Assembly: GCA_020696385.1 (NCBI GenBank)
Contig: JAEHCQ010000002.1
Location: forward strand, 192,001 to 256,000
DNA: 64,000 nt
Direction: 5' to 3'
Source: Methanobacteriota archaeon
Lineage (GTDB): Archaea; Thermoplasmatota; Thermoplasmata; SG8-5; JAGLSY01
Both the position numbers and the translations under genes were made by a program. The notes under the pieces were generated by a model, which saw only the letters and a program-made list of their open reading frames with translations, was not told where the DNA came from and made no database searches. This document shows positions 17,119 to 58,789 of this stretch, one piece after another (the first letter of the stretch is position 1; every line of letters begins with the position of its first letter).

Positions 17119-17177
17119 ATTGATTCCTCCATTACCATTACGGAATCTTGAATGCGCGAATGGATTCGCTCATTCAA
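17119..17177 (-). promoter_or_regulatory. Structured pre-start-codon element, copy A (short)
   Basis: ttgaatgagcgaatccattcgcgcattcaa gattccgtaatggtaatggaggaatcaat then ATG. Confidence 0.75.
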
Positions 17178-18820: not shown

Positions 18821-18880
18821 ATTGAACTTCTCCATTTCATTTCGAAGCTTTGAATATACTTATTGCATTCGCACATTCAA
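18821..18880 (-). promoter_or_regulatory. Structured pre-start-codon element, copy B (short, degenerate)
   Basis: ttgaatgtgcgaatgcaataagtatattcaa agcttcgaaatgaaatggagaagttcaat then ATG. Confidence 0.7.
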
Positions 18881-19766: not shown

Positions 19767-19839
19767 TGCAGGTGCCGGGATTTGAACCCGAGCGACAAGC
19801 TTGGGAAGCTTGAATCCTACCAGACTAGATCACACCTGC
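19767..19839 (-). tRNA. tRNA-Gly(CCC)
   Basis: Cloverleaf GCAGGTG...CAAGC TT CCC AA GCTTG...TTCAAAT...CACCTGCA. Confidence 0.95.
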
Positions 19840-20768: not shown

Positions 20769-21419
20769 TTGTTAATGACTTTGCCCAGTATTGATAAAAT
20801 GGAAAATGATGGAGACATCGAAGGTCTGAATTTCTCTTTGAAAAATTCAGATGTCAATGTGCGCCGTGATGCCACACTGGCCCTTAGCCATCTTGCCGAG
20901 AAAGGAGTGCATGATAGATCGTCCATCGAACACTTGAACATTGCCTTGAAAGATCCCGACGAGGAAGTACGTGAGCAGGCGGGATTCGCCCTCACGGACC
21001 TTGCCAGAATGGATGTTTATGACAGGTCGTCCATCGAACCTCTGAATGCCACCCTGGAAGATCCTGATGAATTAGTGCGACGGAGTGCGGCCTCCGCCCT
21101 CGGGGCACTTGCGGATAAGGGCATCTGTGACAGATCGTCCATCGAACTACTGAATTTCTCTTTGAAAAATTCAGACGAAGGGAATATCTGCTGCCAGGCT
21201 GTGTTCGCTCTTGGCAGTCTTGCTGAAAAAGGTGTTTATGACAAATCATCCATAGATCTGCTGAATACTGCTGTTAATGAATCAGATGGGTGGGTGCCAG
21301 AGCTTGCTGCGGATGCTCTTGAAAAGATGAAGCCGCATATTGAGGAAGAAAGAAAGGGAGCATCAAAGGATAAGAAAAAGCCAGAGTCAGGACTTGAGAA
21401 AGAAGAAGAAAAAAAGTAG
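20769..21419 (+). CDS. HEAT/PBS-lyase repeat protein
   Basis: Repeats of LKDPDEEVREQAGFAL...DRSSIE.LN. Confidence 0.85.
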   Translation: MLMTLPSIDKMENDGDIEGLNFSLKNSDVNVRRDATLALSHLAEKGVHDRSSIEHLNIALKDPDEEVREQAGFALTDLARMDVYDRSSIEPLNATLEDPDELVRRSAASALGALADKGICDRSSIELLNFSLKNSDEGNICCQAVFALGSLAEKGVYDKSSIDLLNTAVNESDGWVPELAADALEKMKPHIEEERKGASKDKKKPESGLEKEEEKK

Positions 21420-21488
21420 TCCCGAGCGGATTTGAACCGCTGTCGCTTGCTCCAAAGGCAAGCATGATAACCGCTACACCACGGGACT
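21417..21488 (-). tRNA. tRNA-Gln(TTG)
   Basis: AGTCCCG...CTTGC CT TTG GA GCAAG...TTCAAAT...CGGGACTA. Confidence 0.95.
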
Positions 21489-38433: not shown

Positions 38434-38567
38434 GATACTACCTCATCAATAGGAATGTGATGGGAGTCATATAATTTTGCATTCCAAATGGTAGTTGACT
38501 TAGCAATAAAGCTTTTATAGAAGTTCAAACTCTTGGGGGAGTCCAAATTCCCATATGGGGAGGTAAA

Positions 38568-38627
38568 TTGAAAGCGAGAGCGTGGCGATTGCTTTCAAAT
38601 TTCCGTAATGAAATGGAGGAAATCAAT
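38568..38627 (+). promoter_or_regulatory. Structured pre-start-codon element, copy C (short)
   Basis: ttgaaagcgagagcgtggcgattgctttcaa atttccgtaatgaaatggaggaaatcaat then ATG. Confidence 0.75.
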
Positions 38628-40277
38628 ATGCAAGGACAACAACCAATTATAGTATTAAGAGAAGGAGCGAAGGACATGAAGGGCAGGGGCGCCCAGCTCA
38701 ACAACATAGCGGCAGCAAAAGCTGTAGCTGAGGCAGTGCGCTCGACCTTGGGTCCAAAAGGAATGGACAAGATGCTTGTCGATGGAATGGGAGATGTCGT
38801 CATCACAAATGATGGAGCCACCATCCTGAAGGAGATCGACATCGAGCACCCGGCCGCCAAGATGGTCGTCGAGGTTGCCAAGACCCAGGACAATGAGTGC
38901 GGGGATGGAACAACATCCGCAGTCGTACTGGCTGGCGAATTACTGAAGAAAGCTGAAGATCTTATCGAACACAATGTGCACCCGACAGTCATAGCAAATG
39001 GATACAGACTGGCTTCTATCGAGGCCATCAACATCCTGAACAAACTGGGTATCAAGGTCAGCCCAACAGATGGGAAGGCCCTGAAGAGTGTGGCTATGAC
39101 CGCGATGACCGGAAAGAGCATTGGAACCGAAAAGGTCTATCTCGCAGACATAACTGTCAAGGCAGTGAAGGCAGTTGCCCAGAAGTCTGGATCAAAATAC
39201 GTTGTCGACATCGACAATATAAAGATCGAGAAGAAGACTGGTGGAAATGTCAGTGATTCAGAGCTCATCGAGGGTATCATACTGGACAAGGAAAAGGTCC
39301 ACCCAAGGATGCCAAGCTCTGTTAAGAACGCGAAGATCGCACTCATCGATTCCGCTCTCGAGATCAAGAAGACCGAAGTGGATGCTAAGATCCAGATCAC
39401 AGACCCAACACAATTGCAGGCTTTCCTGGATGAGGAAGAGAAGACACTTAAGAAGAAAGTGGACCTCATCAAGAAATCAGGCGCAAATGTCGTCTTCTGC
39501 CAGAAGGGCGTGGACGATCTGGTCCAGCACTACCTGGCCAAGGAGAACATCTTCACCATACGCAGGATAAAGAAATCCGACATGGAAAAACTTTCCATGG
39601 CGACTGGTGGTCACGTCGTCACCAACCTCGAGGACATCAAGAAGTCCGACCTCGGAATTGCCGGCATGGTGGAAGAGAGGAAGGTCGCTGACAGTGACAT
39701 GACATTCGTCACTGGCTGCAAGGATGCAAAATCTGTATCCATACTCATCCGCGGAGCAACAGAACACGTCATCGATGAGAGTGACAGGGCTCTGCACGAT
39801 GCTTTGAAAGTAGTGGCAGTCGCAGTCGAAGATGGAATGGTCATACCAGGCGGTGGATCAGCCGAGATCGAATTATCAATGGGCTTGACAAAGTTCGGAA
39901 CCAAGATCGGTGGCAGGGAACAGCTGGCCATAGAGGCTTATGCAAAGGCCACAGAGATCATCCCATGGACATTGGCAGAGAACGCTGGTCTGGATTCTAT
40001 CGACATCCTCATCAAACTGAGAAGCGAACATGAAGGAAAGAAGATGAAGACAGCCGGTATCAATGTGGATAATGGTAAAGTGGTTGATATGAAGAAGCTC
40101 AATATCATCGAGCCACTCAGGGTCAAGACCCAGGCAATAGAGTCAGCTACCGAAGTGGCAAATATGATCCTCAGGATAGATGACGTCATAGCCGGTAAGA
40201 AGATGGCTGGCGGCCCACCAGGCGGCGCAGGTGGCATGCCTCCAGGAATGGGCGGCATGGGCGGAATGGACTTCTGA
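38628..40277 (+). CDS. Thermosome (group II chaperonin) subunit
   Basis: [27 protein letters not shown] tail. Confidence 0.97.
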
Positions 40278-50104: not shown

Positions 50105-50214
50105 TTGAAAGCGAGAATGTAGTGATTGCTTTCAGAACTTCGATAAATTCGAAGTTTTGAATGCACGAATGAATTCGCGCATTCAAATTTCCGACTCGAA
50201 ATGGAGGAAATCAG
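50105..50214 (+). promoter_or_regulatory. Structured pre-start-codon element, copy D (long, four stems)
   Basis: tgaaagcga/ttgctttca; aacttcga/tcgaagtt; ttgaatgc/gcattcaa; atttcc/ggaaat overlapping the SD. Confidence 0.8.
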
Positions 50215-50583
50215 ATGATGCCTGGAATGAGAGGGATGAACCCACGTCAGATGCAGCAAGCCATGAAGAAGATGGGCATAAAGACCGAAGAGATGAATGA
50301 TGTCGAGGAAGTTATAATCAAAATGCAGGATCGAAGCCTCGTTATCAAGAAGCCAGAGGTCACCCTGATGGAAGTTCAGGGGCAGAAGACCTTTCAGGTA
50401 GTTGGCGATCCCGAGATAGTTCATGGAGAGGTTTCCAGTGAGCCTGTCGGCCTGATAATTCCCGAAGAGGATATCGAGCTTGTAGCGGCTCAGGCCAATG
50501 TCTCATATGAAAAGGCAAAGCAAGCTCTGGAAGAGTGTGATGGAGAGCCTGCAGAAGCTATCATCATGCTGATGACTGGCTAG
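50215..50583 (+). CDS. nac: Nascent polypeptide-associated complex protein
   Basis: MNPRQMQQAMKKMGI, EEVII, EEDIELVAAQA, AEAI. Confidence 0.95.
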   Translation: MMPGMRGMNPRQMQQAMKKMGIKTEEMNDVEEVIIKMQDRSLVIKKPEVTLMEVQGQKTFQVVGDPEIVHGEVSSEPVGLIIPEEDIELVAAQANVSYEKAKQALEECDGEPAEAIIMLMTG

Positions 50584-58675: not shown

Positions 58676-58789
58676 TATGGATCACCTCTCTCTGTTCGGA
58701 GATCTCGTATGTGAGAACTGTGTTCACACATATGAAGCTTCGAACCACGCTCGAAGGTCTGAATGCGATCGCCATGCTCTCTCATTCAA
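58676..58789 (-). promoter_or_regulatory. Structured pre-start-codon element, copy E (long)
   Basis: ttgaatgagagagcatggcgatcgcattca gaccttcgagcgtggttcgaagct tcatatgtgtgaacacagttctcacatacga gatctccgaacagagagaggtgatc cata then ATG. Confidence 0.75.

Follow-up and report, generated by a model that had tools for sequence, protein, structure and literature searches.

A hairpin-built repeat before start codons in an archaeal lineage, with a candidate translational relay

Described repeats of similar layout

Mycobacterial interspersed repetitive units (MIRUs), reportedly described by Supply et al. in 1997, are a bacterial precedent for the repeat analysed in this work, a hairpin-built element that lies directly before the start codons of five genes in a 64,000-nucleotide stretch of archaeal DNA (hereafter the window; contig JAEHCQ010000002.1, positions 192,001 to 256,000, of GenBank assembly GCA_020696385.1). 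According to the passages on MIRUs in a 2025 review (PMC12548453), these units seem to be mobile, insert at start codons and carry an internal open reading frame (ORF) coupled to the gene, and this coupling has been suggested to minimise their effect on expression. The corresponding passages of a 2011 review (PMC3184786) report tetranucleotide direct repeats, inverted repeats inside the units, and sites that are filled or empty. Compared with what these passages contain (PMC12548453, PMC3184786), the archaeal element likewise occurs as a 40-100 bp repeat in tens of copies, in gene orientation and between the genes of operons. It also includes a small internal ORF overlapping the stop and start of the flanking genes, forms tandem units, and shows filled and empty sites between related species. 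The interpretation reached here, namely start-codon insertion that would spare expression through translational coupling, is the same as the one given there for MIRUs. The two differ in that the present element is archaeal (they are likened by layout and are presumably unrelated in sequence), is built of covarying hairpins including a stem that masks the Shine-Dalgarno (SD) sequence, and is also frequent in 5′ leaders, where its relay reading frame is dropped. Furthermore, the tetranucleotide direct repeats that the 2011 review mentions for the MIRU site in its part on this subject (PMC3184786) have no counterpart here. By analogy, the element is thus MIRU-like in every feature tested except flanking direct repeats. 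A search of the full-text literature, which does not cover subscription journals, found no archaeal counterpart of a MIRU-like repeat.

The Neisseria REP2 and Borrelia upstream inverted-repeat sequences also lie directly 5′ of genes (PMC3184786). As treated in that section of the review, they resemble the present element in having a ribosome-binding site (RBS), a start codon and, close to the 5′ end, two internal stem-loops, and differ from it in carrying a promoter and in that the section describes no relay ORF for them (PMC3184786). In the archaeal case, by contrast, the promoter-like box of the thermosome gene lies outside the repeat and is conserved in relatives without it. REP/BIME (RAYT) elements and the palindromic elements derived from IS200/IS605 are short hairpin repeats in one orientation with neither inverted termini nor target duplication, as is the element studied here, which differs from them in showing no co-occurrence with a Y1 transposase and in its position before start codons, REPs being located mostly downstream of genes. 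In RNA thermometers of the ROSE and fourU types, a hairpin pairs with part of the SD directly before the start codon, and a hairpin of this kind in this position is present here as well. However, these thermometers are vertically inherited leaders of particular genes, whereas the present element appears to be mobile, is multi-copy, and brings a second SD and a candidate relay.

The element was originally predicted from the letters of the window alone, as either a start-codon-targeting unit resembling a MITE (a miniature inverted-repeat transposable element) or a dispersed cis-regulatory RNA; the relay frame, the link to operon junctions and the bacterial precedents (MIRU, Neisseria REP2 and the Borrelia repeats) had been missed. 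We favour, with a probability of about 0.68, a lineage-restricted, non-autonomous mobile repeat that keeps translation going by termination-reinitiation. By analogy with the systems above, it may be regarded as an archaeal MIRU-like repeat at start codons, built of hairpins and with a translational relay that depends on context. Insertion polymorphism between related genomes, placement before start codons, covarying stems, and a relay frame whose intactness depends on genomic context are the observations that carry this reading.

Placement and structure of the element

The unit is about 56 nt long, and composites of about 107 to 170 nt are made of extra hairpins or tandem units. From 5′ to 3′, it has stop and start codons clustered in the first stem arm, then between one and four hairpins, then an anti-SD-like arm, an SD of its own (SD2) and a short spacer that ends at the ATG of the gene (ATG2). 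The first stem arm contains the motif TTGAATG, often followed by A, which provides TGA in two frames together with an ATG (ATG1), and the anti-SD-like arm pairs with the flank of SD2. The long copy before nac (50105..50214, + strand; gene start 50215-50217) has hairpin 1 at about 50106-50134, hairpin 2 at about 50135-50157, hairpin 3 at about 50158-50185 and a last stem in which 50187-50192 pairs with 50206-50211, SD2 being located at 50203-50207. This copy folds with a minimum free energy of −42.1 kcal/mol (z −4.6), belongs to a subfamily without ATG in stem 1 and has no relay frame. All five copies reported for the window are present, in gene orientation and each ending at a start codon, as are the stem variants quoted for them and the SD-like words just upstream of them. 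The downstream genes were identified by Pfam as Peptidase_M29, a UbiA-family prenyltransferase (labelled menA), TCP-1/cpn60 thermosome, NAC and ABC2_membrane.

The window is part of a 2.28-Mb assembly of 50 contigs with 94.5% completeness (the source genome, G000). A covariance model built from 23 short copies of this genome gave 68 matches at E ≤ 1, a figure that counts both strands of palindromic hairpins and the separate modules of long copies; the covariance-model, nhmmer and pattern matches together merge into 40 loci. All 40 lie directly 5′ of a start codon in gene orientation, and 38 of them end exactly at the start codon (ATG in 36 cases, GTG in one and TTG in one) of an ORF of at least 90 codons. 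The start is uncertain for two loci, one located before an 18-codon ORF and the other a five-hairpin composite before a third ABC-2-like gene. Since all 62 matches of a hidden Markov model (HMM) of hairpin 1 fall within 260 nt of the 40 loci, the genome contains no orphan copies, and the placement and orientation seen in the window hold genome-wide. A perfect 33-nt palindrome at C11:83238-83272 of the source genome has outer arms as in stem 1 and a different core, and has no SD module, no start codon after it and no hairpin-HMM score. At three further starts of this genome (C48:89040-89061, C22:309948-309969 and C33:229982-230004), only the 3′ module of loop, SD2 and spacer is found, with no hairpin 1. 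These look like remnants after loss of the 5′ part; the counterpart of the first one in the congener G002 is a full copy. A short tandem repeat with an 11-nt A/T-rich unit (C22:310000-310040) lies upstream of one remnant-type start.

For the short form, 23 copies (three from the window and 20 others of the source genome) were collected by iterated nhmmer and aligned, long and atypical copies being excluded. They share the first and the last hairpin, the 3′ arm of the latter overlapping SD2. In the two helices tested, 93.7% of the cells are paired, compared with 76.5 ± 1.1% in shuffled alignments (none of 500 as high), and pairing falls to 26-45% when the partners are slid by 1-3 columns; 15 of the 16 pairs are changed on both sides. 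For the long form, an alignment of 13 copies (10 from the source genome and three from relatives) yielded four helices in RNAalifold, with compensatory changes in 16 of the 32 pairs. Single-sequence folds have z-scores of −2.0 to −4.6. These results bear out the original description of four stems in long copies, of covariation, and of a last stem that overlaps the SD.

The anti-SD-like arm pairs with the SD2 flank of its own copy at −5.16 kcal/mol, compared with −3.70 kcal/mol for the arms of other copies (none of 300 permutations as low). For SD1, the native SD upstream of the element, the corresponding values are −3.67 and −3.62 kcal/mol (113 of 300 permutations as low). Because the arm is anti-SD-like, folds containing SD1 allow it to pair with one SD or the other, and an approximate in silico pairing index exceeds 0.5 with SD1 or SD2 in 30 and 24 of 68 copies, respectively. 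Pairing between SD1 and the arm is found in the minimum-energy folds of the thermosome and ABC-permease copies, but it is not copy-specific; it was therefore rejected as a feature of the element and treated as generic SD/anti-SD complementarity. The last stem comprises only six pairs, the predicted occlusion of SD2 is moderate (mean 0.46), and the loops are poorly conserved. In these models, the stem masking SD2 is real yet weak, and it is either selected or else inherited as subfamily structure. It could serve to close SD2 until a relay ribosome opens it, to assist mobilisation, or to tune expression.

Searched against Rfam at gathering score, the window matched only two tRNAs, with none of the matches at the element, and in E-value mode the nac copy gave four chance-level matches, the best with 23 bits against thresholds of 53-101. 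With respect to Rfam, this agrees with the original remark that the element was not recognised as a described family. The tRNA genes of the window are located at 19767-19839 and 21417-21488, both on the − strand.

Pfam matches were obtained for 35 of the 38 proteins encoded downstream of the element. About 17 of the 38 are redox or central-metabolism enzymes. Examples from this group include both subunits of a 2-oxoacid:ferredoxin oxidoreductase, NiFe hydrogenase, NuoF-like and NuoG-like proteins, desulfoferrodoxin, transketolase, isocitrate/isopropylmalate dehydrogenase, carboxyl transferase, 3-hydroxyacyl-CoA dehydrogenase, enoyl-CoA hydratase and the glycine-cleavage P protein. Six are ribosomal proteins or RNase P p29, five belong to proteostasis (thermosome, Hsp70, NAC, and the M29 and M20 peptidases), and the remainder is mixed. 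A bias towards proteostasis, which had been suggested from the window, thus disappears at the genome scale.

The distribution of the element is narrow. The covariance model matched all four other genomes of the family, with 30-63 matches each, and four of the 13 genomes of one neighbouring family, with 1-5 matches each, but no genome among the 43 others searched from the order and class; taken over all 60 relatives searched, 52 yielded no match to the element. The order comprises 22 genomes in the collection, for all of which the search was repeated. Copies in the neighbouring family (G020 and G019) have the same layout, including a 33-codon frame that ends 1 nt before the start. No viral contig contained a degenerate pattern made from the loop of hairpin 1, and in metagenomes the pattern occurred in a single contig (L187), where the copy is severed by the contig end. 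Plasmids and phages gave no match to the element by blastn.

Empty and filled orthologous sites

The thermosome locus shows most directly that the element has been gained. A short two-hairpin copy occupies the 5′ leader of this gene (38568..38627, + strand; gene start 38628-38630), downstream of the native SD (about 38557-38564) and of a TATA-like box (about 38513-38519) that lies upstream of the element. Its site is unoccupied in each of the five relatives examined, namely G002, a congener whose thermosome protein is 98% identical, G004, from another genus of the same family, and G005, G006 and G007. In all five, the TATA-like box is retained and the ATG is preceded by a plain SD, so the copy in the source genome is derived. 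It has no ATG in stem 1. The TTG beginning its stem 1 is in frame with the thermosome ORF with no intervening stop (38569-38630, + strand), and judged by the reading frame a 20-codon N-terminal extension of the thermosome would be formally possible. In the copy before the gene for the glycine-cleavage P protein (C33 of the source genome, start near 93068), ATG1 is likewise in frame with the gene. Among the matches listed for the thermosome of the source genome, which leave out its near kin, the closest come from uncultured Thermoplasmata and Methanomassiliicoccales-like genomes, with at most 69% identity. Four DNA sequencing runs compared at 80% likeness matched only thermosome fragments from other organisms, none of them spanning the element, and these matches were not counted as evidence.

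Empty sites were also found at other loci. At dnaK the element is missing from G002 and from G005-G007, at the ABC permease G002 differs by a clean 110-nt indel within the spacer between SD and ATG, the menA site is empty by exactly 56 nt in G002 and also empty in G003, and the rpL31e element is absent from G002. For 14 of the 40 loci of the source genome the state in G002 is known, five being empty and nine filled. In the reverse comparison, 33 element loci of G002 were mapped to the source genome, and 32 of them have an orthologous site there. When the alignments were read, 23 of these sites proved to be empty (one keeping a 3′ remnant) and nine filled; an automatic count of 24 empty and eight filled had misjudged three of the retrieved loci, L061 because of a neighbouring element and L068 and L081 because of variant hairpins. 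Empty orthologous sites are thus present in both directions.

The indel always lies between the native SD, which remains upstream as SD1, and the native ATG. Its size is mostly about 46-65 nt (short units) and reaches 161 nt in composites, and a few pairs with poorly aligned flanks show indels of 27-35 nt. Since the flanks of the two genomes are only about 77-94% alike, the breakpoints within the 5-9 nt spacer are not fixed. L084 and L093, two unrelated copies of G002, have an identical SD2-plus-spacer that is unlike the native sequence at both empty sites, which argues that SD2 and the spacer travel with the element. The original prediction that the element inserts between an old RBS and the ATG and brings its own RBS agrees with these sites.

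Sites filled in both genomes are frequently not occupied by the same form. At the M29, hydA and C11:690857 sites, the other genome has another subfamily or hairpin type. For M29, the site in G002 (L064) contains a copy of another subfamily behind the remnant of a copy resembling that of the source genome. The transketolase (tkt), nac and S15 sites differ between the long and the short form by a 51-nt indel, and the nac site in G002 (L080) is occupied by a short copy, in line with the proposed interchange of the two forms through their two similar hairpins. At rpL10e, two units are arranged in tandem, and the second begins directly after SD2 of the first; the 3′ end of the element itself therefore looks like a target.

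Two further sites may be mentioned here. Near 48900 of contig C48 in the source genome, the site orthologous to L082 of G002 is empty and shows a 9-nt tandem duplication across the start codon, the first copy of which matches the first bases of the element in G002; excision may have left this footprint. In G004 (L057), the dnaK leader has an insert of about 50 nt, located about 70 nt before the dnaK start, with the layout of the element: an SD, an ATG with a 15-codon frame, a second SD and a stop, and then the ATG of the gene. Only the 3′ part of this insert resembles the element; the two may be distantly related, or the insert may have arisen independently.

The relay frame and competing explanations

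In most copies, ATG1 is located in the 5′ arm of stem 1, 4-8 nt after SD1, which is the former position of the native start. The frame from ATG1 opens 56 nt before the gene start in the short form and 107 nt before it in the long form, and typically ends 2-5 nt before the ATG of the gene or overlaps it; the difference of 51 nt between the two forms is a multiple of three. In composite copies, frames of 36 and 56 codons end on the start of the gene, the one of 56 codons belonging to the five-hairpin composite, where the start is presumed. The ABC-2 permease copy of the window (58676..58789, − strand; permease start 58675-58673) is a long one and the plainest example of a relay frame, with its native SD at 58799-58793. 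The gene on its 5′ side is an ORF of 258 codons, for which 'ABC ATPase' is the label of the original prediction. The upstream stop (58784-58782) overlaps ATG1 (58785-58783), from which a relay frame of 36 codons (58785-58675) crosses all four hairpins and ends with the native stop codon (58677-58675), which still overlaps the permease start.

To compare copies, a relay was called intact when its frame, read from ATG1, terminates in the interval from −9 to +5 relative to ATG2, and the context was called abutting when an upstream ORF with 80 or more codons has its stop in the stretch from 12 nt before to 2 nt after ATG1. With such an abutting stop, the relay is intact in 18 of 21 copies in the source genome and in 12 of 17 in G002, while without it the relay is intact in three of 19 and none of 16, respectively. 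The association is significant by Fisher's test in both genomes (p = 1.8e-5 and 2.3e-5), although the two tests are not independent because nine loci are orthologous. Among the 21 abutting copies of the source genome, the upstream stop overlaps ATG1 in seven and lies directly before it in another seven. In one entire subfamily, ATG1 is absent owing to a compensated change in stem 1, and the members are found mainly in 5′ leaders (thermosome, nac, desulfoferrodoxin and rpL10e). In the window, the short copy before the M29 peptidase (17119..17177, − strand; gene start 17118-17116) has no abutting upstream gene, and the frame from its ATG1 (17173-17171) ends early, 22 nt ahead of the gene start. 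The short copy before menA (18821..18880, − strand; gene start 18820-18818) has ATG1 at 18876-18874, with a frame that extends 43 nt inside the gene.

In the favoured explanation, the element would land in the few bases between SD1 and the start codon, always in gene orientation. At operon junctions, a ribosome ending the upstream gene would restart at ATG1, translate the small frame across the hairpins, stop at or overlapping ATG2 and restart there aided by SD2; with this relay and restart, translational coupling would outlive the insertion. Copies in 5′ leaders mostly have a decayed relay frame or none; there the frame would be dispensable, and SD2 alone would serve the gene. The use of the relay by ribosomes and the mode of movement are what we infer from this pattern, and the SD2 hairpin may also tune expression. 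Regulation by the SD-masking hairpin is possible, and a mobile relay and a regulatory role are compatible rather than exclusive.

Several findings weigh against a mobile relay. About half of all copies are without an intact relay frame. The S8e copy is identical in the source genome and G002, with about 91% likeness in its flanks, a hint that it is under more constraint than neutrality would give. Outgroups fix the polarity at the thermosome only, and the other empty sites could be deletions. At the menA site in G002 and the L093 site in the source genome, both empty, the 5′ motif of the element precedes the ATG, a motif found before only seven of 831 crude gene starts; judged from the sequence, it may reflect a preference for certain targets, or it may be what a deletion between ATG1 and ATG2 left behind. 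Signs of a transposition mechanism are also scarce. In a permutation test on 53 copies (p about 0.4), the sequences flanking ATG1 resembled those flanking ATG2 of the same copy no better than those of other copies, so no target duplication exists beyond the shared ATG. No convincing terminal inverted repeats were found, apart from a weak and poorly conserved similarity of 6-7 nt at the ends of some copies, seen by eye. A Y1 transposase (IS200-type, PF01797) was considered as partner and rejected, as it is present in a single copy in the source genome (143 aa; C50:2010-2357, − strand) with unrelated flanks. Of the 22 genomes lacking the element that were searched for PF01797, 13 have it, and four of the nine element-bearing genomes gave no match (G003, G004, G016 and G021, which are 59-83% complete). 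No transposase partner emerged by way of PF01797, the only family searched among transposases, reverse transcriptases and recombinases. About 130 nt comprising the C-terminal end and 3′ flank of the Y1 gene are repeated about 600 nt downstream, with a tRNA-like stretch in between.

A longer element carrying the hairpins was likewise not found in the source genome, where none of the 62 hairpin-1 HMM matches lies outside the 40 loci. With neither target duplication nor convincing inverted termini nor such a longer element, a classical MITE was rejected. From the originally proposed MITE-like element, insertion at start sites is retained on the basis of the empty sites, and the classical MITE hallmarks are not.

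The main rival is a dispersed cis-regulatory RNA (a thermometer, a riboswitch-like RNA, or a leader bound by a protein or small RNA), in which masking of the SD would control a regulon of highly expressed genes and mobility would be secondary or absent. The SD2 hairpin is maintained by compensatory changes and is copy-specific, chaperones, ribosomal proteins and core redox enzymes are among the targets, and some orthologous copies are highly conserved, as at S8e. In addition, the in silico pairing of the anti-SD arm with SD1 or SD2 would make a switch possible. However, just nine of 32 sites are common to two species of one genus, the 52 relatives in which the element was not found leave it with a narrow range, and the poorly conserved loops have no match in Rfam. 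The short last stem and mean SD2 occlusion of 0.46 speak for weak masking, pairing of SD1 is no better with the own arm than with those of other copies, and a relay frame that depends on context is not predicted by a pure RNA switch. We consider this explanation unlikely, and the thermometer or riboswitch regulon raised in the original prediction is not favoured as the primary one.

Spread without any transposase, by template switching or gene conversion between leaders with the SD and ATG words as microhomology, and loss by deletion between ATG1 and ATG2, would account for the failure to find target duplication, inverted termini and a partner enzyme. It would also fit the junctions, which are invariably at SD and ATG, the replacement of copies at one site by other subfamilies, and the menA site, where the empty state equals the filled one minus exactly the 56 nt between both ATGs. 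On the other hand, microhomologies of 3-7 nt are very short for about 40 precise events per genome, the left junctions vary inside the spacer, and SD2 and the spacer are carried along rather than retained from the target, as seen in L084 and L093. This route appears improbable. Equally doubtful is an 'RBS-homing' unit, which would find its target when its anti-SD-like arm, together with the 3′ half of stem 1, base-pairs with the SD or start of expressed genes, so that start codons would be chosen under nucleic-acid guidance; the host may then have adopted some copies as a common means of controlling the translation of highly expressed genes. Finally, a functional peptide encoded by the small frame, such as an amino-acid-sensing leader peptide or a micro-protein, is very improbable, since the peptides, although alike among the many copies with an open frame behind an SD, are alike because the DNA is homologous, show no constraint (variability of 0.94, 0.84 and 0.85 bits at the three codon positions), are altered in frame and sequence by single-base loop indels in several copies, and are missing in about half of them.

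For a mobile repeat with a translational relay, the puzzle is how a 56-nt unit with neither inverted ends nor target duplication reaches the few bases between SD and ATG. For the annotation of these genomes, it matters that the element puts a false start and another SD in front of many core genes, and that some upstream genes obtain an altered C-terminus with a stop codon provided by the element. With about 40 natural constructs per genome, in which the relay is intact, decayed or absent, archaeal termination-reinitiation and SD masking become testable in this lineage.

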